A DNA stretch of 64,000 bases, taken from sequence record MT129654.1, one strand, 5' to 3'. Below are positions 2,927 to 62,390 of the stretch, piece by piece. The notes beneath the pieces are model-generated. The model did not search any database, was not told the DNA's origin, and saw only the letters and a list, made by a program, of their open reading frames with translations. The position numbers and the translations under genes are program-made. Position 1 is the stretch's first letter; each line of letters opens with the position of its first letter. The DNA comes from Escherichia phage MN04.

Positions 2927-4207
2927 TTATGCCTCGTAAATAATCGGAGGAAGTTTAACACCAAGCAGATAAGACATGTTACTCTGACCTGCCATTAAAT
3001 CCATATTAGTTGCGTCTATAACACGAGCTTCTTTATCATCTTTAGCAACGGTATATGGGTTTGCTGAAAGTGCATAACGAACCATCAGAGAAATAGCCGG
3101 TTGTAAACTATCAGGGTCTACAATAACTTTATACGCACCAACATGTTCTTGGTCGTCTAAATCCAGACCTTCGGTATACGGAGCATAGAAAATAGAACCA
3201 ACTACTTCATTACCGCCGTAATCTTCTTTAACGCCTACGATAACATAATCTAAAGGACTATTAACATCACAGAATACAGGCAATCCATTAATCAAATAAC
3301 CGTAAGCAGTTTCTGGGAGCCAAGCTTCATCTTCTGGTTTATGTTTCAACCAACCTGAACCAGCGAGCATAGCAGCAGCACGACTAGATGCGACAACAAA
3401 CGTACCTGAATAAGAAGTGGTTTTCTGAATTTCAGAATTCATCTCACAAACCATTTCATATAATTTACGTGCACTTTCTGGGGCGGAATTATAGGACAAA
3501 TCAATAATACCATTATCAGATACACCAGTTACTTTGTAACGTTTAGATACGGTAATCAAGGATTGTAGTACGTCTTTATTGATTTCATCAGCCATTACAG
3601 TGGCTAAAAGGTCTTCTAAGAACGCAGGGGCGTCGAAGCCATTGGATTCCATGTCTTGGGCTAGTTCTACAGTCAAAGCGGTTTTAAGTTTACGAGACTT
3701 AACAGGTGCGTTCCATTTATTAACCTGGAATACTGCATTACTAATTTCAACATCACCTGCTTCGAATTTCTCTGTGTGAGCCGCATCAGGAACCAGACGA
3801 CATGTTAATGACACCAAACCTTCTTGAAGGGCCTCAGCCAATTCTGTAGCGCTAGTGGATGCGAGTGGGCTTGCTTGAAGAGCCTTATAAACTATGTTCT
3901 GATACTTGAAATATTCACCCTTGGCAATAGCCTGGGCCTTATCTGTGAGTTCTGGGATAGTTTCACGGTCTTTAGAACCAACTTCACCGCCATAAACGGC
4001 ACCAGTTTGGAAGCTAAATTCATTATCAGGAGTAAGATATTTGACACCATACAATGCAGCAATAGGCTGGCTAGTACGTTGTTCAGCAATAATATCACGG
4101 TAAATCAATTTGGTTGTAGCACGGGTCAAAGCAACAAGATTAGGGCGACCCAATGAGTTGCTAGAAGTAGTTGTTGACTCGCGCAGTAATTCGTTAATCT
4201 TTGCCAT
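2927..4207 (-). CDS. gp24: Head vertex protein gp24
   Basis: 426 aa; MAKINELLRESTTT N-terminus and overall match to T4 gp24; adjacent to gp23. Confidence 0.85.
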   Translation of the reverse strand: MAKINELLRESTTTSSNSLGRPNLVALTRATTKLIYRDIIAEQRTSQPIAALYGVKYLTPDNEFSFQTGAVYGGEVGSKDRETIPELTDKAQAIAKGEYFKYQNIVYKALQASPLASTSATELAEALQEGLVSLTCRLVPDAAHTEKFEAGDVEISNAVFQVNKWNAPVKSRKLKTALTVELAQDMESNGFDAPAFLEDLLATVMADEINKDVLQSLITVSKRYKVTGVSDNGIIDLSYNSAPESARKLYEMVCEMNSEIQKTTSYSGTFVVASSRAAAMLAGSGWLKHKPEDEAWLPETAYGYLINGLPVFCDVNSPLDYVIVGVKEDYGGNEVVGSIFYAPYTEGLDLDDQEHVGAYKVIVDPDSLQPAISLMVRYALSANPYTVAKDDKEARVIDATNMDLMAGQSNMSYLLGVKLPPIIYEA

Positions 4208-4249: not shown

Positions 4250-4290
4250 GTTTACAGCAAGGTTATCACATGTTACTATAGACCTATCAA
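4250..4290 (+). promoter_or_regulatory. Early promoter module (GTTTACA ... TACTATAGACCTATCAA)
   Basis: GTTTACA at 4250; conserved TATAGACCTATCAAAACA box shared with more than 8 other copies in window. Confidence 0.6.
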
Positions 4291-17658: not shown

Positions 17659-17666
17659 TATTTATA
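17659..17666 (-). promoter_or_regulatory. Late promoter TATAAATA for gp13
   Basis: TATAAATA on minus strand about 22 nt upstream of gp13 ATG. Confidence 0.55.
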
Positions 17667-17670
17667 GCAA

Positions 17671-17690
17671 AAAAGGGCCGAAGCCCTTTT
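17671..17690. terminator. Terminator hairpin downstream of wac (GGGC-CGAA-GCCC flanked by A/T runs)
   Basis: AAAAGGGCCGAAGCCCTTTT palindrome. Confidence 0.55.
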
Positions 17691-17691
17691 A

Positions 17692-19281
17692 TTATGGTGC
17701 TGAGTTTAAAGTCACAAAATCTGACAATAACACCCACGCATTATCAACAAGAACATACGGAAGTCCATCAGCCACAGGAGCAACAGGAGGGCGTTTAGCC
17801 AACTCAGTTTCTAGTGCAGCGATTTTATCTTCTGCTGTAGTAACTCTAGAAGTTAAAGCTGCCACTTTACCATCGGTAACAACTAAATCATCCTTAACAG
17901 ATTCTATTTCAGTAGAAACGTTAGGAACTTCTGTCCATGTAGCATTACGACGAGCATAAAGTTTACCATCGGAAGGGGCATCATTCAACTTACCTAACAT
18001 CTGGGTTTCTAAAGAAGTAACCGCATTAATAAGACCACGTTCTTCTACAGTAGTACCGTTAGGGTTTGTCCCGTCAACCTTATTGGTGAGTTTAAGTAAA
18101 GTACCCTTAATACCAGATTGGTTATTTCCAATTTCTACTTGAATATCCTGGATAGATGAAGTAGATTGGTTTGCTTGGATAATAACGTCATTTAAACGCT
18201 TATTAATGGTCCCAGCTGCCGGAGATACTTCACTACCTAAACGGCGGTTGATATCAGTAACTTGGAAACGTAAGCCATCACTTGAACTAACACCCACTAT
18301 GGTTTTAAGGTCATTTACATCAGTACGAAGACCGCTTAAACGTCCATTAATAGAAGTAGGAGTTGATTCAGAACCTATTTGGGTTTCAATTGATGTTACA
18401 CGAGGTTTTAAATCAACGTTGACTGAATTTTCTAGGGTAAGAGTTTTGCTTTCTAAAGTAGTTACTCGGTCCTTTATAGGCATACCAGAGAAATCAATAT
18501 CAGCCTTAATTTCGTCGATAGATGTATTAAAATTAATTGCGGCCGTTTCTAATACAGAAATTCGGGTATAAGCCGGTTGTTTACCTACAGTATCAGAATG
18601 AGGGCCAAGTTCAGCACGAATTTCATTTAATTTAATACCCAATTGCCCGACGTCAGAATCTTCATAATTCCTTTCAAGGGTATCAATGCGAAGACGATGG
18701 TCGACCAATTGAGTGGTATTATCAATGATGCGACGTTTCATACCGGTGGCTTCACTGGTTTCACCAGGAGGCAATGGATTGCCATTTATATCCTGGTTTT
18801 CATAATGACCTATTTCGGTTTTAAGAAGAACAATATTTTCACGTATAGTTAAATATGGGCCGTCTTGTAAAGGGTCATGGTAACCAACGTCTTCTTTTAG
18901 GTGGTCGAAATTTATGGTTAAATTGTTTAGCCCGGCAGTGGTTTCGCCTTCTACTCTCTTAAGCTCTACGATATCAACACGGTTTTTCTCAATTTGCTGA
19001 ATGGCGGAAATATCCGTAGCCATTTCTAAGGCATCATTGATATTATTAACGTTTTCTACCAGTTCGTTAACTTTATCTGCGGTTTTCAAATCATTCGCAT
19101 CAAGAGCTTCAACGTTTTTCTGAACTCCTAAAGCAGCAGCGTTCAAATTACCTTCATTGCCGTATTTTGTTTTTGCTGCAGACATACAATCACCCTCGCG
19201 TATCCATTGGATACGCTTTTGAGGAGCATCAGGTACGCCGTCAACAAATGGTAACTCACTAAGTTCCAATTTGTTAATCAT
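17692..19281 (-). CDS. wac: Fibritin (whisker antigen control, neck whiskers)
   Basis: 529 aa coiled-coil-rich; C-terminal foldon-like 'DGLPYVLVDNAWVLLSDFV' resembling T4 foldon. Confidence 0.85.
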   Translation of the reverse strand: MINKLELSELPFVDGVPDAPQKRIQWIREGDCMSAAKTKYGNEGNLNAAALGVQKNVEALDANDLKTADKVNELVENVNNINDALEMATDISAIQQIEKNRVDIVELKRVEGETTAGLNNLTINFDHLKEDVGYHDPLQDGPYLTIRENIVLLKTEIGHYENQDINGNPLPPGETSEATGMKRRIIDNTTQLVDHRLRIDTLERNYEDSDVGQLGIKLNEIRAELGPHSDTVGKQPAYTRISVLETAAINFNTSIDEIKADIDFSGMPIKDRVTTLESKTLTLENSVNVDLKPRVTSIETQIGSESTPTSINGRLSGLRTDVNDLKTIVGVSSSDGLRFQVTDINRRLGSEVSPAAGTINKRLNDVIIQANQSTSSIQDIQVEIGNNQSGIKGTLLKLTNKVDGTNPNGTTVEERGLINAVTSLETQMLGKLNDAPSDGKLYARRNATWTEVPNVSTEIESVKDDLVVTDGKVAALTSRVTTAEDKIAALETELAKRPPVAPVADGLPYVLVDNAWVLLSDFVTLNSAP

Positions 19282-33483: not shown

Positions 33484-33491
33484 TATAAATA
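33484..33491 (+). promoter_or_regulatory. Late promoter TATAAATA for gp4-gp2-gp3
   Basis: TATAAATA about 27 nt upstream of gp4 ATG. Confidence 0.55.
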
Positions 33492-33498
33492 ATATTAA

Positions 33499-33506
33499 TA
33501 TTTATA
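33499..33506 (-). promoter_or_regulatory. Late promoter TATAAATA for gp53 (divergent)
   Basis: TATAAATA on minus strand about 28 nt upstream of gp53 ATG. Confidence 0.55.
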
Positions 33507-36228: not shown

Positions 36229-37127
<899 letters not shown>

Positions 37128-37139
37128 TTTAAAAAAGAT

Positions 37140-37185
37140 GTTTACAAGGTCTATAGACATGATACTATAGACCTATCAAAACAAA
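37140..37185 (+). promoter_or_regulatory. Early promoter module
   Basis: GTTTACA, 17-bp spacer, TACTAT, conserved AGACCTATCAAAACA. Confidence 0.6.
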
Positions 37186-37208
37186 CCCAACCTAACGGAA
37201 ACAAAAAA

Positions 37209-38449: not shown

Positions 38450-38922
38450 ATATTAAATTCGGACAAGTTATTCCTAAAGGTTATGCGATTGAAATTGAAA
38501 CCTGGGAAAATGATGGCGATAACTATAAAACCCAGACTATATTTGGCGTAGAAGAACAAGAAATCCAACAGTACAAATATATCCTAGAACTTTTCCATGG
38601 TTCGCATTGCAACAACCCGGATAAATGCGGTAATTCGGAATGGGACGTAGTTAAGCATTTGGTTATTGCTCACATTGAATCCGGTGTAAAATCAGGCCAA
38701 TTGACTCCTGAATTTTTAGATAAAGTCCTCGGTATCCAAGACTTAGAAGCCTTGCTGAACGATGACGAAGAAGAATACTACTTGAATGAAGCCCTTACTG
38801 AGCTCCTTGGTATGGCTTGTGAATATGGTGGCGATTTTATCCGTGCAATTTCTTATGTCAAGCTGTATATCATTGAAGAAGAAATTAAAATCCCTGATGT
38901 GAAAGCACTTGATATGCTTTAA
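38446..38922 (+). CDS. Hypothetical acidic protein
   Basis: ATG 38446 overlapping upstream stop (ATGA); 158 aa. Confidence 0.5.
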   Translation: MNIKFGQVIPKGYAIEIETWENDGDNYKTQTIFGVEEQEIQQYKYILELFHGSHCNNPDKCGNSEWDVVKHLVIAHIESGVKSGQLTPEFLDKVLGIQDLEALLNDDEEEYYLNEALTELLGMACEYGGDFIRAISYVKLYIIEEEIKIPDVKALDML

Positions 38923-39051
38923 GAATTATGTGATATTATTACTCTATCATTAATACCCTCTATTACCAAAGGTTCTTCCCTCAAAGAGCCTTTCATAATA
39001 GACAAGGTCTATTAATCAAACTTACTTTACTTAATTTTATTTGAGGTGTTT

Positions 39052-39318
39052 ATGTTAGTATTAAAATTAGCTTTTTATGACCCAGAAACCAAGACAACAA
39101 CTACTAAACGTTGTTCTATTTCATATGAATGCCAATTTGGCGAAGTTGAGACCGACGGCGAGCCCTTTATGGCAATTGCCGATAGCACATTCGCTAAACC
39201 AAAAATAATTCCACTAGTTAACGCTGCGGCTTATCTGGTTGCTCCTGAAGAAATGACTTATCATACAATTCAGCACATGGCTAAAGACGATAATGCTCCT
39301 GCTGGATTTGTAATTTAA
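39052..39318 (+). CDS. Hypothetical protein
   Basis: ATG 39052 with GAGGTG RBS (track start 39046 is GTG); ends 5 nt before first tRNA. Confidence 0.45.
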   Translation: MLVLKLAFYDPETKTTTTKRCSISYECQFGEVETDGEPFMAIADSTFAKPKIIPLVNAAAYLVAPEEMTYHTIQHMAKDDNAPAGFVI

Positions 39319-39323
39319 ATTAA

Positions 39324-39397
39324 GGCCCTGTAGCTGGACGGTCAAGCGAGCGACTCATAATCGCTGGATGGTGGTTCGATTCCACCCAGGGCCACCA
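39324..39397 (+). tRNA. tRNA-Met (anticodon CAU; could be Ile2 if lysidine-modified)
   Basis: Perfect 7-bp acceptor stem, anticodon stem AGCGA/TCGCT with loop CTCATAA, T-arm GGTGG-TTCGATT-CCACC, encoded CCA. Confidence 0.8.
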
Positions 39398-39401
39398 ATT
39401 T

Positions 39402-39476
39402 GGATGTGTAGCTCAGTGGTAGAGCAGTTGACTGTTAATCAATTGGTCCATGGTTCGAATCCATGCATGTCCGCCA
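39402..39476 (+). tRNA. tRNA-Asn (anticodon GUU)
   Basis: Cloverleaf: D-arm GCTC/GAGC, anticodon loop CTGTTAA, T-arm CATGG-TTCGAAT-CCATG, acceptor with two G-U pairs, CCA. Confidence 0.75.
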
Positions 39477-39480
39477 AATA

Positions 39481-39556
39481 CGAGGCATAGCTCAGAAGGA
39501 AGAGCAACGGTCTTCTAAACCGTAGGTCGTAGGTTCGATCCCTACTGTCTCGACCA
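39481..39556 (+). tRNA. tRNA-Arg (anticodon UCU)
   Basis: Cloverleaf: D-arm GCTC/GAGC, anticodon stem ACGGT/ACCGT loop CTTCTAA, T-arm GTAGG-TTCGATC-CCTAC, CCA. Confidence 0.85.
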
Positions 39557-39840
39557 AACAAGAAACCGGGTCGCTACCGGTAAGCCGTCGGACTGATGTT
39601 CCCTGAGTAAGGACTGACATTAACAAATCTTTACGATCTGTTAACGTCCCCTTACATCACAGCAGAAACGGCGCACCGAATTATCGATTCGAGGAAATAT
39701 CTTTGCCGTAAGCCGAGTAGCGTTTTTGACGGAACGTTCGGATATGGTCGAGATATGGCCTTTTAAAAATATTGAGTAGCGTCAACTACTTAATAACCGG
39801 GTTCGAATCCTGGCGTTTCGTACAAACACTTGCCTAGCAG
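39557..39840 (+). ncRNA. Candidate small stable RNA(s) or degenerate tRNA-like element after the tRNA cluster
   Basis: No ORF; tRNA-like T-arm (CCGGG-TTCGAAT-CCTGG) and 7-bp acceptor pairing 39730-36 with 39814-20; internal repeats CGGTAAGCCG and GAGTAGCG. Confidence 0.3.
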
Positions 39841-39872
39841 GTGGAACCCCGACAAGGTTACCCTAGGTTAAA

Positions 39873-39909
39873 GGCCCTTCCGAAAGGTTGGGCCTTTTTT
39901 GTATAAATA
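39873..39909 (+). repeat. Terminator hairpin plus late promoter cassette, copy 1
   Basis: GGCCCTTCCGAAAGGTTGGGCC, T-run, then GTATAAATA; near-identical copy at 40496. Confidence 0.7.
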
Positions 39910-39935
39910 TACAGTAAACTAACTTAGGAAATAAT

Positions 39936-40490
39936 ATGAAACTTTTAAAATATTTGAGTTGGATTCTGTTGGTCCCACTAGATTTTATCTCTATGGTTCT
40001 AGCCGTTATCCTTGCGCCTTTTGTGGTTCCTTTCCACAATAAAAAGACTGGTAAATTGCCGTACGGTTTTGATTGGATGATGACATACGATAATCCAATT
40101 GACGGTGACAAAGGTCATATTAAACGTTGGGCTAAAATCAGGAAAATGCCTGGCGGTGTTTATCTCCAGAGGGTAGCTTGGCTATGGCGAAATAAAGCTT
40201 ATAACTTTGCTTACCATAAACTCGGTCGCGATTGTAGCTCAGAATTCCATTATCGTGGTAATCCTGATGTGGAATCAGGTTCTCCTGATAAAGCTCACCA
40301 TGGTTGGTTGTGGATGTGGAATGATGACGCCTGGGGTGTATTTGCTTCAGTTCCTTATCTTAAGGTCGGTGGAATCACATTTTACCTTCGCGTGTACTGT
40401 GGCTGGAAGCTTAAGAGTCTTTTGTCTCGTAAAATCCCTAAAGCTATGTTAGCCTTCCACGTGAACCCGTTCCGGTTCTACAAGAACTGA
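39936..40490 (+). CDS. Membrane-anchored hypothetical protein (late-promoter driven)
   Basis: 184 aa; N-terminal TM helix (LSWILLVPLDFISMVLAVILAPFVVPF); Trp-rich; AGGAA RBS. Confidence 0.55.
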   Translation: MKLLKYLSWILLVPLDFISMVLAVILAPFVVPFHNKKTGKLPYGFDWMMTYDNPIDGDKGHIKRWAKIRKMPGGVYLQRVAWLWRNKAYNFAYHKLGRDCSSEFHYRGNPDVESGSPDKAHHGWLWMWNDDAWGVFASVPYLKVGGITFYLRVYCGWKLKSLLSRKIPKAMLAFHVNPFRFYKN

Positions 40491-40495
40491 TTTAC

Positions 40496-40531
40496 GGCCC
40501 TTCCGAAAGGTTGGGCCTTTTTGTATAAATA
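40496..40531 (+). repeat. Terminator hairpin plus late promoter cassette, copy 2
   Basis: Same 36-bp sequence as 39873-39909 with one fewer T. Confidence 0.7.
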
Positions 40532-40559
40532 GATAAGTTAATTAACACAGGAAACAATA

Positions 40560-41177
40560 ATGAAAACTTACAATGAATTTTTGAACGAAAGCGTTCTGAC
40601 TGAAGCCAGCGTGCGCATGACTAAAGATATGTGGCAAGCTGCTTATGATAAAATTTCCGGGACTAAAACCACTACCGAGTTCTTTAAAAACGTTTATGAT
40701 ATGTATGGTTTTGATACTAGTAGCCAGAAAGAATATTACAAAGCTTCCAAAGCTTTTAAAGATATCGTAGCCGGTGGCGCTACTAAGCCTGCTAAACCAG
40801 CTAAAGCTCCTGTTTCTAAACCCGTGGCTCAGACCAAAGTTGCAGCACCGAAACCGACACCTAAAGCAGAGCCTGTAAAAGAAGCTCCTAAACCTAAAAT
40901 CAAGTTCGACACCAGCACTATTGTTAAAAAATATAACCAGCTGGCTTCTTTGGTTTCTGAAATCGAATCCGAAACTAAACAACTCGTTCGAGAATTCAAC
41001 GCCCTTCGTAATGGGCAGCACATTAACAACCTGGATACCCCAGACCTCTATCGTCTTTACCTGACGGTTGAAGGCCTTAAGTATACCCAGCCTATGCACG
41101 AAGAAATTGATAACAAACTTCGTCAAGCCCGCCGCCTTGCAGGTGACGCAGCACAGTTCGAAAAGACCCGTAAATAA
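40560..41177 (+). CDS. Internal-protein-like protein with capsid targeting sequence and Pro/Ala/Lys-rich linker
   Basis: N-terminus MKTYNEFLNES; 'KPAKPAKAPVSKPVAQTKVAAPKPTPKAEPVKEAPKPK' linker; late promoter upstream. Confidence 0.65.
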   Translation: MKTYNEFLNESVLTEASVRMTKDMWQAAYDKISGTKTTTEFFKNVYDMYGFDTSSQKEYYKASKAFKDIVAGGATKPAKPAKAPVSKPVAQTKVAAPKPTPKAEPVKEAPKPKIKFDTSTIVKKYNQLASLVSEIESETKQLVREFNALRNGQHINNLDTPDLYRLYLTVEGLKYTQPMHEEIDNKLRQARRLAGDAAQFEKTRK

Positions 41178-41180
41178 TGA

Positions 41181-41203
41181 AAGGAGACTTTGGTCTCCTT
41201 TTA
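41181..41203 (+). terminator. Rho-independent terminator (AAGGAGAC-TTTG-GTCTCCTT then T-run)
   Basis: 8-bp stem plus T-run right after stop at 41177. Confidence 0.6.
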
Positions 41204-41236
41204 GGGGGTTTAAACTAAAAATAATTTCACAAAGTT

Positions 41237-41280
41237 GTTTACACCTCCTTTAAATATGATACTATAGACCTATCAAAACA
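41237..41280 (+). promoter_or_regulatory. Early promoter module
   Basis: GTTTACA ... ATGATACTATAGACCTATCAAAACA. Confidence 0.6.
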
Positions 41281-41300
41281 ACAGTGTGAAGGAGAGTAAA

Positions 41301-41564
41301 ATGGATAATTATGGTGAATTGTTTAATTTCTTTATGAAATGCGTTCCTGAAGAATTTGGTGCTACTGTTAACGATATTAAGGTTATCGGTCCTGAACACC
41401 CAGTGTATGAAACCTATGCAGTAATGGGTAACGAAGATGGACAGTGGTATACAATTAAAGTTGTGATTAATATGTTCTCAGCTGAAGGCTACGCCAAAAC
41501 GTCTACCAAAGTTTACCATGATAACGATTTTGATGCAGAAGATTATTTCAATAATATGAAATAA
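41301..41564 (+). CDS. Hypothetical protein
   Basis: ATG 41301 with GGAG RBS (track 41286 is GTG extension); 87 aa. Confidence 0.5.
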   Translation: MDNYGELFNFFMKCVPEEFGATVNDIKVIGPEHPVYETYAVMGNEDGQWYTIKVVINMFSAEGYAKTSTKVYHDNDFDAEDYFNNMK

Positions 41565-45934: not shown

Positions 45935-46894
45935 ATGATGTTAGTTATTGGTTCTCGTGCACTGCACCAAGCTGGTCTGATTGAAAGTAAGTATATCGAA
46001 AATTCTGATTGGGATTTCATTGCCGACCAAGGCTCATGGAATCACTTTAAAGCCCGGATGTTCGGCGCTCATGTTCCTGTGGATAATCCTGATGTCCAGG
46101 CCTTTAAATGTATGTACAATGGTAAAGAAACCTATTTTGAAGCTTATATCGTCCGTGCCCTGACTAACGTACGAGAAATCACCGGCGAGCTTCAGGACGA
46201 AGATTTCACCTCAAGTTATCGTCTCCTGAAATATGCCGAAAATCATATTAAAAAGGACCGTCTTACGGGTTTCTATTGGGCCACACCTGATATCTGTCTG
46301 GCCATCAAAATGAGCCATCGTTATCTGAAGAATAACCCTTTCTTTTTGAAGACGATGTCCCACATCAAATACCTTCGTAATAAAGGTGTAACCCTGAATG
46401 AAGAGCTCCAAGAAATCATGCTGCAACGTCAGAAAGAAACGTTGAGCTATTCTCATCCTAAATTGGATGTAAACAAATCATCATTCTTTAATGACACCAT
46501 TTATACGCTAGACCATGACTCTATCCACGAAGCTGTGGCATTGGCTGGACGCCCTGCATATACCTTTTATATGAAAGATGGTTCTGAAGTCATGACCTCA
46601 CGTGAGAAGTTTGAAGCTTTGCCTGAAGCTATTAAACTGGCTGGCGTATATGAAGAAACTTGTGTGTTGGCCCTAGAACGTTCACAGGTTCCTAATGACT
46701 TCAATATTTCACCATCATTAAGTTTCTATATGGCTCTTGAGAAAGTGTGTACCTCAATCACTTCAGGCTGGTTCCGCGAGTATGCCTGGGAAAACTACCA
46801 AGCTGTAGTGAATATGTATAAGACGCTAGGTGAAAATGACTACATCAAGCGATTCCAAGATAACCAACATTTAATTCGTCCTTTCACAAAATAA
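45935..46894 (+). CDS. Hypothetical protein with possible nucleotidyltransferase-fold motif
   Basis: 319 aa; 'VIGSRALHQAG...SDWDFI' resembles GS-x(n)-DxD NTase signature. Confidence 0.5.
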   Translation: MMLVIGSRALHQAGLIESKYIENSDWDFIADQGSWNHFKARMFGAHVPVDNPDVQAFKCMYNGKETYFEAYIVRALTNVREITGELQDEDFTSSYRLLKYAENHIKKDRLTGFYWATPDICLAIKMSHRYLKNNPFFLKTMSHIKYLRNKGVTLNEELQEIMLQRQKETLSYSHPKLDVNKSSFFNDTIYTLDHDSIHEAVALAGRPAYTFYMKDGSEVMTSREKFEALPEAIKLAGVYEETCVLALERSQVPNDFNISPSLSFYMALEKVCTSITSGWFREYAWENYQAVVNMYKTLGENDYIKRFQDNQHLIRPFTK

Positions 46895-46906
46895 TTGCAT
46901 AAAACA

Positions 46907-46950
46907 GTATACAAGGTCTATAGGTGTGATACTATAGACCTATCAAAACA
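46907..46950 (+). promoter_or_regulatory. Early promoter module (GTATAC variant of -35)
   Basis: GTATACAAGGTCTATAGGTGTGATACTATAGACCTATCAAAACA. Confidence 0.5.
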
Positions 46951-46972
46951 ACAGAGTGAAATGGAGAATAAA

Positions 46973-51915: not shown

Positions 51916-52190
51916 TTGAAGATATCAAGGGTTACAAGCCACATACCGACGATAAAATCAGTAAAGTGAATGCCATTAAAGATGCTGAAGTTCGATTAGG
52001 CTTAATCTTTAAAGCATTAGAAGAAGAATACGTTGAAGCCTTTACATGCTCAGGTGTTGATAAAATGAGTGATGAAGAATTCGACCTCACTCATGAACGT
52101 CTCGCCCAGATTCGTACGGCAATCGAACGCTTGAAAGAAGCCTCCATGTGGGCCTGTCGTTCTGTTTTCCAACCCGAAGAAAAATACTAA
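51912..52190 (+). CDS. Hypothetical protein
   Basis: 92 aa; ATGA overlap. Confidence 0.45.
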   Translation: MIEDIKGYKPHTDDKISKVNAIKDAEVRLGLIFKALEEEYVEAFTCSGVDKMSDEEFDLTHERLAQIRTAIERLKEASMWACRSVFQPEEKY

Positions 52191-52195
52191 AAGCA

Positions 52196-52240
52196 GTTTA
52201 CATCTCCTGTAGACGTGGTACTATAGACCTATCAACTACA
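52196..52240 (+). promoter_or_regulatory. Early promoter module with flanking inverted repeat
   Basis: GTTTACA; CTCCTGTAG ... TACTATAGACCTATCAA ... CTACAGGAG. Confidence 0.6.
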
Positions 52241-52252
52241 GGAGATTACAAA

Positions 52253-52711
52253 ATGTCAGAAATTAATTCAGAAGTATTCATCCGCCGCAACAAATTACGT
52301 CGTCAGTTCGAAACCGAATTTCGTGAACTTAACGCGTCCATCAAAAAAGCCGCCATCAAGAGCGGTGTCCCAGCTTTCTTTATTAAGTACTCTAATCACT
52401 TGTTGGACCGTGCTATCCAACGTGAAATTGACGAAAAATATGTTTTCTCTTTGTTCAAGAAGCTCCATAATCATGTTAAAGAAATCCATGAATTTTTAAT
52501 CCAGGAGCCTCTTCCTGACATAGAATCTGAAATTGTCCCAGGTAAAGTGTATCGTCCACTGCGTCTCGAGATTACCGATAAAACCTTATGGTTGGGTATG
52601 ACCGTAGATCGTAAACATCCTGATAAAGGATATTCATTAAAATGTCGTATGGCATTTGTTAACTCTAAACGTTTAGAAGGTAAAACCAGCACGAAAGTAA
52701 TCTATCTTTAA
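52253..52711 (+). CDS. regB: RegB-like endoribonuclease (tentative)
   Basis: 152 aa (T4 RegB 153); early promoter; position between ip genes and tk; assignment by size and synteny, not confirmed alignment. Confidence 0.45.
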   Translation: MSEINSEVFIRRNKLRRQFETEFRELNASIKKAAIKSGVPAFFIKYSNHLLDRAIQREIDEKYVFSLFKKLHNHVKEIHEFLIQEPLPDIESEIVPGKVYRPLRLEITDKTLWLGMTVDRKHPDKGYSLKCRMAFVNSKRLEGKTSTKVIYL

Positions 52712-55626: not shown

Positions 55627-55920
55627 ATGGGTATTTTCCGTACAGTGGCTTGTATCCTTATGATTGGATGTTTAAGCCCAACATCTTCACTAGCAAACAA
55701 ATCCGACCCTAAATTGATGGACGCCTTTGCTAGTAGTGCGATGCCAGTTTATGCGCAAATGAGTAAACCTAGTGTAAAGGCCTCCGAAGACTACTGGGCT
55801 TATGTAACTGCTTCTTGGAAAATTTCAAATTGCAATACAATAGAGTCTTGCTCGATTGAAGGTCGGGCTATCGGAGAACGATACGCTAAACTAATGAAGG
55901 TAGATGATGAAATTCAATGA
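55627..55920 (+). CDS. Secreted protein or lipoprotein (hypothetical)
   Basis: Signal peptide MGIFRTVACILMIGCLSPTSSLA with lipobox-like LMIGC. Confidence 0.5.
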   Translation: MGIFRTVACILMIGCLSPTSSLANKSDPKLMDAFASSAMPVYAQMSKPSVKASEDYWAYVTASWKISNCNTIESCSIEGRAIGERYAKLMKVDDEIQ

Positions 55921-56330: not shown

Positions 56331-56371
56331 GTTTACATCCTCTAGGAACGTGATACTATAGACCTATCAAC
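56331..56371 (+). promoter_or_regulatory. Early promoter module
   Basis: GTTTACA ... GTGATACTATAGACCTATCAACTA. Confidence 0.6.
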
Positions 56372-56387
56372 TAATGAGGAGAACAGT

Positions 56388-56624
56388 ATGAAACTTACAA
56401 GTACTACGGTTTCATTGGAATATGAAATCAATAACCGCCTCCTTGAGATTAAGATATTCGACGACCGAAGTATCTTTGCTGACTACCGAGGGTACAGAAT
56501 TCGTCTAGAAAAGGACGAGCTCAAGGAACCATGGCTCCTTAAAGACACATTAAAGGGTTGTGGGTGTAAGCTGAAGACCACTCAAGCCCAAGAATTAATT
56601 TCTACTATCAACAAATACTGGTGA
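56388..56624 (+). CDS. Hypothetical protein
   Basis: 78 aa; GAGGAG RBS. Confidence 0.45.
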   Translation: MKLTSTTVSLEYEINNRLLEIKIFDDRSIFADYRGYRIRLEKDELKEPWLLKDTLKGCGCKLKTTQAQELISTINKYW

Positions 56625-60373: not shown

Positions 60374-60395
60374 AAACCTTCTCCTTTAAATAAAA

Positions 60396-60403
60396 TATTT
60401 ATA
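60396..60403 (-). promoter_or_regulatory. Late promoter TATAAATA for collagen-like gene
   Basis: TATAAATA on minus strand about 23 nt upstream of ATG 60373. Confidence 0.55.
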
Positions 60404-60409
60404 AAAGTA

Positions 60410-60450
60410 GTTTACACTTTCGTAGAGCATGTTATTATGGACCTATCAAA
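60410..60450 (+). promoter_or_regulatory. Early promoter module
   Basis: GTTTACA ... TGTTATTATGGACCTATCAAATC. Confidence 0.55.
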
Positions 60451-60475
60451 TCTACTGAGTGAAACGGAGAATATA

Positions 60476-61466: not shown

Positions 61467-61808
61467 ATGTTCGAACAATTTATTTACAATCTTTTTAATG
61501 CAGGCCAAACTTTTTCCAAAGCCATGAAACAGTCCGTCGAGGACTATGATAAAGAAGTTATCGACGGATATACCAATAGAGTTTATAAAACGGATTGTGA
61601 AGAAGGAGACTACAGGAGACTGCTCTTGGCAGCGAAGACCCAAGCCTTAATAAATCTAGACCGTAAGCAGGTTAAGTTGGCAGGCGACTTCAGAGATGAA
61701 CTCTGTGCCATCAGGAACGAATACCTTATTCGTATTAAACACCAACGGAAAGAGAACACACAATCCGCCTGGTTTAGTGGGCAAGCCGGTGAAAAAAGTT
61801 TTTATTAG
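61467..61808 (+). CDS. Hypothetical protein
   Basis: 113 aa. Confidence 0.45.
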   Translation: MFEQFIYNLFNAGQTFSKAMKQSVEDYDKEVIDGYTNRVYKTDCEEGDYRRLLLAAKTQALINLDRKQVKLAGDFRDELCAIRNEYLIRIKHQRKENTQSAWFSGQAGEKSFY

Positions 61809-61810
61809 TT

Positions 61811-61851
61811 GTTTACATCTCCAGTAGAAATGATACTATAGACCTATCAAC
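61811..61851 (+). promoter_or_regulatory. Early promoter module with flanking inverted repeat
   Basis: GTTTACA; CTCCAGTAG ... TACTATAGACCTATCAA ... CTACTGGAG. Confidence 0.6.
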
Positions 61852-61865
61852 TACTGGAGGTTATC

Positions 61866-62390
61866 ATGAACGCTAAAGATATTTTTTCATTGATTAATTT
61901 TAACAATGGTAATTTCAAATCTGAAAAACAAAGCAAGTTCTTTAACGACGTTGCTTGTGGTAATGAGATTACCGTATCTGGAGGAGAGATTTACAAAAGC
62001 CGTTGGAACTGGATTGCTATCATCGATTCAGTTGGTATTGTAGAGCTCTATAAAAACACCAACAAAAAACGTACTCTTCACTGGAGTCGTGAAACCAACC
62101 AAGCTTATCAAGCTGAGCGTAATAAACGTTTAATGCCTACTGAATCTGACCTGGCAAACGTTAAATCAGATATCGCTTATTTTGATAACTTGATTGCCGA
62201 ACAACAAGCGGTTATTGATAAGTTTGACGAAATCAAAGCTTGTAAAGAGATTCCTGAATTCATGCGGGAATCAGTAAACGAACAGTACGCCCTCACTTCA
62301 GGTCGTATTGAGCAGTACAAATCACAACGAGCTGAACGCCAAGCTCTGCTTCAGAAATTTGAAGAGCGTTTAAAGACGGTTCTCGCATAA
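61866..62390 (+). CDS. Hypothetical protein
   Basis: 174 aa; helical C-terminal region. Confidence 0.5.
   Translation: MNAKDIFSLINFNNGNFKSEKQSKFFNDVACGNEITVSGGEIYKSRWNWIAIIDSVGIVELYKNTNKKRTLHWSRETNQAYQAERNKRLMPTESDLANVKSDIAYFDNLIAEQQAVIDKFDEIKACKEIPEFMRESVNEQYALTSGRIEQYKSQRAERQALLQKFEERLKTVLA

Follow-up and report, generated by a model that had tools for sequence, protein, structure and literature searches.

This work concerns a short direct repeat in a stretch of 64,000 nt from Escherichia phage MN04 (MT129654.1), referred to below as the window, which we assign to a JS98-like Dhakavirus, a T4-type phage. Each of the two copies of the repeat, here called joints, consists of a terminator-like hairpin with a T-run and a late-promoter consensus, and between them lies the gene of a DUF7338 protein. 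On the plus strand, the order up to copy 1 is 57B, two genes for proteins with a capsid targeting sequence (CTS), trna.4-.2, tRNA-Met/Asn/Arg, rnaD and rnaC; copy 1 is followed by the DUF7338 gene, copy 2, another CTS gene, a different hairpin, an early element of ~84 nt and e.8. The features of the locus are listed below.

39324-39556, plus strand: cluster of tRNA-Met, tRNA-Asn and tRNA-Arg (ARAGORN; Rfam tRNA model, 63-73 bits)
~39558-39677, plus strand: homologue of T4 rnaD (species 2 stable RNA), from alignment to annotated T4 rnaD
~39684-39822, plus strand: homologue of T4 rnaC (species 1 stable RNA), from alignment; ~98% identical to T4, with 3 differences
39873-39900, plus strand: hairpin copy 1 (39873-39894) and T6 run, from sequence, fold and T4 orthologue
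39902-39909, plus strand: late-promoter consensus TATAAATA, 26 nt upstream of the DUF7338 ATG
39936-40490, plus strand: DUF7338 / phrog_2143 gene, 184 aa (Pfam E = 4.6e-63; PHROG E = 1.1e-79)
40496-40522, plus strand: hairpin copy 2 (40496-40517) and T5 run, 5 nt past the DUF7338 stop codon
40524-40531, plus strand: late-promoter consensus TATAAATA of the CTS cassette, 28 nt upstream of the CTS-gene ATG
40560-41177, plus strand: CTS gene, 205 aa, phrog_2280, N-terminus MKTYNEFLNE/S
41180-41205, plus strand: different terminator-like hairpin AAAGGAGACTTTGGTCTCCTTTT closing the CTS cassette (fold -16.9 kcal/mol, z = -4.4)
41218-41301, plus strand: element of ~84 nt of the T-even early promoter–stem-loop (PeSL) type (repeat families D1, D2, D3 and D5)
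41301-41564, plus strand: e.8, downstream of the 41218-41301 element

The rnaD coordinates were carried over from T4 and may be off by a few nt. An Rfam E-value search of 38900-40700 returned only tRNAs and sub-threshold noise and missed the rnaC and rnaD homologues, which were recognised solely through alignment to annotated T4. The hairpin at 41180-41205 was reported by the terminator scan on the minus strand, and its plus-strand fold was computed. The transcription unit ending at copy 1 presumably starts with the tRNA cluster. The rnaC segment is missing from JS98, dhaeg and MX01, in which pairwise alignments place a 146-nt deletion at window 39679-39824, and by this pattern the rnaC gene seems either to form a mosaic patch or to have been lost precisely. 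In addition, the 3' half of the window rnaD is closer to T4 than to JS98.

Copy 1 (39873-39909, 37 nt) is composed of GGCCCTTCCGAAAGGTTGGGCC, TTTTTT, G and TATAAATA, and copy 2 (40496-40531, 36 nt) is the same except for TTTTT, one T fewer. The first-pass annotation had described near-identical 36-bp elements bracketing a 184-aa open reading frame (ORF) at 39936-40490, and this description is borne out, the copies being 37 and 36 nt long. The joint is the best-conserved short direct repeat of the window (repeat family D9), and its 36-mer had no match in 100 dinucleotide shuffles. In a fuzzy search of the window, the composite of GGCCCTTCCGAAAGGTTGGGCC, a T-run and GTATAAATA was found twice, and a third copy of the hairpin, also sought there by fuzzy search, was not found. 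An ungapped pattern search allowing up to 3 mismatches returned copy 2 alone, because of the one-T indel between the copies. The leaders up to both ATG codons align with weak similarity between the copies; therefore, each repeated module extends over ~65-70 nt.

In both copies, the RNA forms a stem of 5 bp and then 2 bp, interrupted by a 2x2 U·U internal loop and capped by a GAAA loop, with energies of -17.8 kcal/mol (z = -3.7) for copy 1 and -15.3 kcal/mol (z = -3.0) for copy 2. In both, a G+C-rich stem-loop leads directly into a T6 or T5 run, as in Rho-independent terminators, and the hairpins with their T-runs presumably act as transcription terminators. A consensus terminator scan of the region did not call the joint hairpin, on account of its 2x2 internal loop.

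The TATAAATA octamer occurs at 17 sites in the window, compared with 6.9 expected, and most of these lie ~20-30 nt upstream of a Shine-Dalgarno (SD) sequence and start codon. Both joints belong to this group, with the octamer 26-28 nt upstream of SD and ATG. As at T4-type late promoters, which have the octamer at about -10, it is exact at 39902 and at 40524 and is accompanied by neither a -35 box nor a Mot box; the one sigma-70-like call nearby is weak (9/12). We infer from this that the octamers are the late promoters of the DUF7338 and CTS genes. In the record of phage Lutter, the homologous pair carries the depositors' labels "terminator" and "promoter". Elsewhere in the window, at 17659-17700 on the minus strand, a terminator-like hairpin AAAAGGGCTTCGGCCCTTTTTT is directly followed by TATAAATA, upstream of a 311-aa ORF; its stem is a different one, so terminator plus late promoter is a recurrent design with unrelated stems. 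At 33484-33506, two TATAAATA octamers on opposite strands stand 8 nt apart. A 149-aa ORF on the plus strand and a 200-aa ORF on the minus strand diverge from them, each preceded by its octamer at ~26 nt, which suggests a back-to-back pair of late promoters.

The DUF7338 protein matches its Pfam model over residues 1-183 of 184, at 212.6 bits against a cutoff of 27. It has a hydrophobic N-terminal helix and 11 Trp residues (counted by eye), in agreement with the Trp-rich membrane protein of the first-pass annotation. A literature search for DUF7338 found nothing, and some records name the gene "holin" or "structural protein", without evidence. As to the downstream gene, a CTS ends in a (L/I)xE prohead-protease site. 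The product of the ORF at 40560 begins with MKTYNEFLNES, which is CTS-like, follows the N-terminal pattern MKT[YF]xEF… and can be set beside the MKTFKEF start of T4 IPI, the CTS being a concept established for the T4 internal proteins (PMC3012670). The 205-aa product is thus putatively an internal head protein; since a CTS protein is needed while proheads assemble, late expression would suit it. ORFs at 36918, 37209, 40560, 49749 and 50406 share the CTS coding repeat ATGAAAACTTAYMAAGAATTT… (family D6), and these five putative CTS ORFs indicate three separate internal-protein loci in the window. In vB_EcoM_005, the leader and first codons of the window gene are fused to another CTS protein; what the CTS genes share at their 5' coding ends is an additional homology patch.

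In T4, the hairpin downstream of rnaC is AGCCCCGACCGAAAGGTTGGGGC-T5, with a perfect 10-bp stem and -22.7 kcal/mol; no TATAAATA follows it and e.8 comes directly. It resembles copy 1 in position, conserved trailer, GAAA loop and 3' arm, and differs in its perfect 10-bp stem and in having neither TATAAATA nor a cassette behind it. By these likenesses, copy 1 is the orthologue of the T4 rnaC terminator. Since an orthologous hairpin stands at the same place in T4, copy 1 can be taken as the resident terminator of the tRNA/rnaD/rnaC operon. Copy 2, by comparison with relatives, is the DUF7338 cassette's own terminator, and the two copies are thus non-equivalent. The Dhakavirus variant differs from those of T4 and Mosigvirus by a compensatory swap, G-C to C-G, at stem position 2. 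An equation of the locus with the T4 ipII/ipIII position was rejected, because the T4 annotation puts ipIII beyond e and nothing between rnaC and e.8.

The corresponding loci of relatives, 20 annotated and 41 from viral contigs, were classified by their content 3' of the conserved rnaC trailer. At least 10 different architectures were found at the rnaC–e.8 site, given below with HP for hairpin, P for late promoter and CTS205 for the CTS gene of the window; CTS154 and CTS157 denote other CTS ORFs, of 154 and 157 aa.

HP – e.8: T4; Dhakaviruses vB_EcoM_FB and vB_SalD_ABTNLS3
HP+P – CTS205 – e.8: dhaeg, IME08 and others
HP+P – DUF7338 – HP – e.8: MX01
HP+P – DUF7338 – HP – next gene, e.8 also missing: JS10
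HP+P – DUF7338 – HP+P – CTS205 – e.8: window, JS98, IME281, AnYang
HP – CTS154 – DUF7338 – HP: QL01, UGJNEcP3
HP – CTS154 – HP: L042, L043
HP+P – CTS157 – HP: Tequatrovirus Lutter, L024, L031, L051
HP+P – CTS157-like – DUF7338 – HP: vB_EcoM_005
HP+P – CTS208 …: LF82-1

Within Dhakavirus, all four combinations of the two cassettes exist (neither, DUF7338 only, CTS gene only, both). The repeated joint is the sole sequence between the DUF7338 and CTS205 markers; by the four-gamete argument, four combinations of two adjacent markers in one genus call for exchange in the ~70 nt between them or for repeated indels at the joints. The empty Dhakavirus junction was predicted in silico by joining the left flank of the window to the right flank of MX01, and was then matched at full length and in one piece by two records, vB_EcoM_FB and vB_SalD_ABTNLS3, both confirmed on inspection. 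Base-level alignment of the window with dhaeg shows a 622-nt indel with both ends inside the repeat. dhaeg and IME08 have no DUF7338 gene, and their single joint is a hybrid, with the left flank and T6 of copy 1 and the right flank of copy 2.

Homology with many relatives stops at window 40522, the end of the copy 2 T-run. The CTS cassette extends from this T-run as far as the early promoter of e.8, at its AT-rich upstream part, and the alignment of the window with MX01 gives the 41218-41301 element as its right boundary. The TATAAATA octamer after copy 2 is missing in JS10, MX01, QL01 and UGJNEcP3, all of which are without the CTS205 gene; from this distribution, the octamer belongs to a second, independently variable cassette, that of the CTS gene. 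The copy 2 hairpin, on the other hand, accompanies the DUF7338 gene in most sampled Dhakavirus loci. Junction searches covered 50,697 phage records. Because counts at coverage of 80% or more were inflated for some junction queries, two nearby pieces having been joined, identity bands or single-piece matches were used. With RefSeq/GenBank duplicates included in the counts, the window-type copy-2 junction was found in 11 records, the DUF7338–hairpin–early promoter junction in 23 and the hybrid junction in at least 14 at 99% identity or more.

The first-pass annotation had proposed that such repeats let cassettes be gained or lost by homologous recombination, and had named as a check relatives with one repeat left and without the bracketed ORF. 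dhaeg and IME08, with their hybrid copy, are such relatives, and the 622-nt indel, the hybrid and the four combinations support the proposal. The opposite outcome, unrelated conserved terminators with no indel polymorphism of the bracketed gene, was not seen in the relatives compared. As far as alignments can tell, these genomes show the repeated joints as sites of cassette insertion, deletion and recombination.

The same unit is found behind another terminator. In Mosigvirus KMB38 (L055 1380-2160), a DUF7338 gene with 75% amino acid identity and a homologous leader comes directly after rI. Its upstream joint reads …TAATCAAAGCCCCTTCCGAAAGGTTGGGGC-T5-GTATAAATA…ATG, and downstream stands TAATCAAAGCCCCTTCCGAAAGGTTGGGGC-T6, followed by the sequence that is found after the single rI hairpin of Av-05. 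The latter (L026 5045-5190) is the empty rI site, differing from KMB38 by 621 nt between flanks that are 96.7% identical. On this comparison, a unit of late promoter, leader, DUF7338 gene and hairpin is docked behind two terminators of one hairpin family. The hairpin variant of the cassette is that of the resident terminator, GGCCC…GGGCC in most Dhakavirus loci and GCCCC…GGGGC in KMB38; UGJNEcP3 is mixed, with GCCCC in the resident copy and GGCCC in the cassette copy. In more distant phages (RB43, Gelderlandvirus, Felixounavirus), DUF7338 occurs in other contexts. For example, the gene follows tRNA-Arg in Gelderlandvirus STP4-a (L054 1213-2055) and lies between tRNA-Leu and tRNA-Gln in Felixounavirus Alf5 (L057 1329-2139). 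Its place beside tRNA clusters in unrelated groups would reflect either general insertion hot spots or a functional link.

The hairpin itself is also found apart from the cassettes. Outside the window, Dhakaviruses carry a third, identical 22-nt hairpin (GGCCCTTCCGAAAGGTTGGGCC and a T-run, no TATAAATA) with no cassette at the convergent uvsW.1/uvsY.-2 junction (L048 4242-4268 in QL01, also L019, L034, L046 and L049). A near-identical hairpin, GCCCCGGCCGAAAGGTTGGGGC with a T-run, recurs with the conserved flank …GTGTTAGGTGTGAAATT in unrelated viral contigs (L013, L016, L018, L020-L022, L027, L028, L037-L039, L041, L044, L050 and L052), and hairpins like it are present in T5-like and Aeromonas phage records. 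This recurrence would be due either to convergence or to horizontal spread of the terminator.

We consider it very probable that the locus holds tandem late-gene cassettes at a tRNA-operon terminator, exchanged at the repeated joints. A tandem stack of such cassettes would have been inserted just 3' of the terminator ending the tRNA–rnaD–rnaC operon, each consisting of a TATAAATA late promoter, a leader of ~25 nt with SD, an ORF and a terminator hairpin. The DUF7338 cassette would bring a terminator of the resident hairpin's sequence family, so that the hairpin would be doubled after insertion, and the late promoter of the CTS cassette would abut copy 2 to give the 36-nt direct repeat. Each hairpin with its T-run would stop upstream transcription and each TATAAATA would restart it late in infection under gp55/gp33-type control; the DUF7338 and CTS proteins would each have a late transcript of their own, shielded from the early/middle tRNA operon. 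The phage's own homologous recombination would be the most likely driver. Unequal crossover is one conceivable route and double crossover during co-infection another; a third would pass through a circular intermediate made up of hairpin, promoter and ORF, like the one put forward for PeSL.

Several points weigh against this model or limit it. The perfectly shared stretch, at just 36 nt, is on the short side for homologous recombination to be efficient, and the comparative data fit a circular intermediate, unequal crossover and double crossover alike. The Dhakavirus hairpin, with its 2x2 U·U internal loop, is weaker than the perfect 10-bp stem of T4 and was left uncalled by a simple terminator scan; terminator and late-promoter activity are both read from consensus, and part of the hairpin similarity could be functional convergence. 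No second hairpin was detected after the gene in L053, the single VR5-type Dhakavirus locus sampled. In Gaprivervirus TH15 and VR20, the gene comes right after the T-run of the rnaC hairpin and has a different 3' hairpin; therefore, hairpin duplication is not obligatory.

Other explanations would place the cause elsewhere than in homology between joints. That the GSCCC-NN-CCGAAAGG-TT-GGGSC hairpin is a dedicated landing pad used genome-wide, acted on by a structure- or sequence-specific phage activity, we rate as doubtful. If it were true, pads would lie after the rnaC, rI and uvsY.-2 terminators, and they would make up an integron-like system without an integrase, in which late-gene cassettes with promoters of their own are captured, stacked and transferred between loci and genera. 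A landing pad at the rI site was sought in the window and is absent, the rI homologue at 55627-55920 having no such hairpin and overlapping the next gene.

In a second explanation, which is in our estimate quite improbable, the hairpin would be the recognition or cleavage site of a phage enzyme, and cassette insertion would be break-initiated and site-targeted instead of resulting from plain homology. Candidates would be a cruciform-acting structure-specific nuclease, a homing-type endonuclease, or the GGGC/GCCC-motif-dependent pathway that was proposed by Mosig for T4 deletions. The insertions always lie directly 3' of the T-run, even with a different 3' hairpin (TH15 versus L030), and the landing site is the same hairpin both at rnaC and at rI. 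In addition, the stem GGCCC…GGGCC resembles the GGGC/GCCC inverted repeats at T4 deletion endpoints (Mosig 1998, as cited by Arbiol 2010, PMC2839356). However, the cassettes of the window have no nuclease gene linked to them, the homing endonuclease of SegB type that AnYang has in its tRNA cluster is absent from the window, and homology also accounts for every junction observed. Terminator-targeting mobile elements (group IIC introns, IS200/IS605-like), which would encode a reverse transcriptase/ribozyme or a TnpA/TnpB-type protein, were rejected, since DUF7338 is the only ORF and Rfam gives only tRNAs in 38900-40700.

It is also conceivable that the joints are simply two good terminators with late promoters, kept alike by functional constraint on a G+C-rich hairpin with a GNRA loop, a T-run and an invariant TATAAATA, and that the polymorphism arose by unrelated illegitimate events. 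The near-identical hairpins of unrelated phage contigs and of T5-like and Aeromonas records agree with this, as do the composite of hairpin, T-run and TATAAATA with a different stem at 17659-17700 (minus strand) and the third identical Dhakavirus hairpin at uvsW.1/uvsY.-2, which stands there without a cassette. But indels end at the repeat in several independent pairs at two loci, the single copy of dhaeg and IME08 is an exact hybrid, all four cassette combinations exist, and the cassette hairpin variant matches the resident one in Dhakavirus and Mosigvirus genomes with a duplicated hairpin, UGJNEcP3 excepted. Functional constraint with unrelated events is therefore highly unlikely to account for the locus. 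Finally, SegB-type homing, in which co-conversion of the tRNA region would carry neighbouring cassettes along from one co-infecting phage to another and the repeats would be bystanders, can be given almost no weight: T4 SegB lies within the tRNA cluster, a homing endonuclease is there in AnYang, GRNsp7 and IME540, and homing endonucleases are named by Comeau 2014 (PMC4122927) among the sources of plasticity acting in parallel, but the window, JS98, dhaeg, MX01 and FB show all four combinations without an endonuclease gene at the locus, and co-conversion leaves the hairpin duplication and the rI-site insertion unexplained.

The preferred model, exchange of tandem late-gene cassettes at repeated joints, has close parallels. 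Arbiol 2010 (PMC2839356) described PeSL in RB49 and phi1 as cassettes of an early promoter and a stem-loop flanking variable ORFs, with element–ORF–element in one phage, a single chimeric element in a relative, and mini-circles detected. Comeau 2014 (PMC4122927) extended PeSL to T4/PST and nt-1/KVP40 and added a middle-promoter form (PmSL). The joint shares with PeSL the intergenic composite of stem-loop terminator and promoter ending in SD and ATG, which is found at both copies, and the position of the copies beside variable ORFs in hyperplastic regions, here the non-core rnaC–e.8 site. As with PeSL, the flanked ORF is missing in relatives with one chimeric copy (window and JS98 versus dhaeg and IME08; KMB38 versus Av-05), and homologous exchange or a mini-circle was proposed. 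In contrast, the promoter of PeSL is sigma-70-like and early, whereas the joint has the late consensus TATAAATA without a -35 box, and neither an early nor a MotA-dependent middle promoter. The late consensus after the hairpin therefore makes the joint a late-promoter analogue and not a strict PeSL. Further, the PeSL stem-loop overlaps its promoter, whereas the joint has a discrete upstream terminator, the rnaC-terminator orthologue, and perfect homology covers ~36 nt here as against roughly 100 nt in PeSL.

PmSL and the PeSL of T-even phages show that the cassette idea spans promoter classes, and the stem-loop of PST/T4 has the same place as that of the joint, just upstream of the promoter. 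They have MotA-box or TTTACW…TAYWAT promoters and AT-rich stems, whereas the joint has a late promoter and a G+C-rich terminator. A late-promoter version is not mentioned in Arbiol 2010 (PMC2839356) or Comeau 2014 (PMC4122927); an earlier description elsewhere is possible. The elements at the internal protein (IP) loci of T-even phages (Repoila 1994), as described in Arbiol 2010 (PMC2839356), combine early promoters with stem-loops that are weak and AT-rich. A view of them as based on late promoters was rejected on this account, and the joint is not equated with them. From what is related of them, these loci resemble the present one as hypervariable CTS-protein loci with repeated regulatory sequences on both sides, for which shuffling was proposed. 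They differ in that T4 has no IP gene at rnaC–e.8 (ipI adjoins 57B, and ipIII lies beyond e), and one of the cassettes here, DUF7338, is not an internal protein. Integron arrays offer an analogy only: single-gene cassettes in tandem, a repeated imperfect-palindrome joint and possibly a circular intermediate are alike, but the locus has neither an integrase nor attC/attI, its cassettes have a promoter each, and recombination is presumably by the phage's general homologous system.

Early elements of the T-even PeSL/Repoila type are themselves frequent in the window. This family (~60-84 nt, GTTTACA…N17…TACTAT with an overlapping stem-loop, AGACCTATCAA) has at least 6-9 copies, at 37121-37204, 41218-41301, 46888-46971, 52177-52260, 56331-56390, 60391-60474 and 61792-61875, and also at 4268, 37524, 45453 and 49662. 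The copies are scattered among the accessory genes, and the CTS genes at 36918 and 37209 are flanked by some of them. Meanwhile, a separate 197-nt direct repeat with 72% identity occupies 1659-1855 and 2946-3142, spaced 1287 nt apart.

The joint is a late-promoter variant of known recombination-prone regulatory cassettes and introduces no new principle. It extends the concept of early- and middle-promoter cassettes (PeSL/PmSL) to late genes, and gives a natural example, at base resolution, of accessory-gene swapping in T4-type phages. The DUF7338 cassette represents one unit at two different terminators in two genera. Cassettes with their own late promoter and terminator would dock behind an existing terminator and leave the expression of neighbours undisturbed. 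The rnaC–e.8 junction would add one more hypervariable site to those of the injected internal proteins, themselves candidates for an anti-defence role. For T4-like therapeutic phages, the hairpin joint may provide a predictable and tolerated insertion site for engineering, and it may also serve as a marker for finding accessory late genes.

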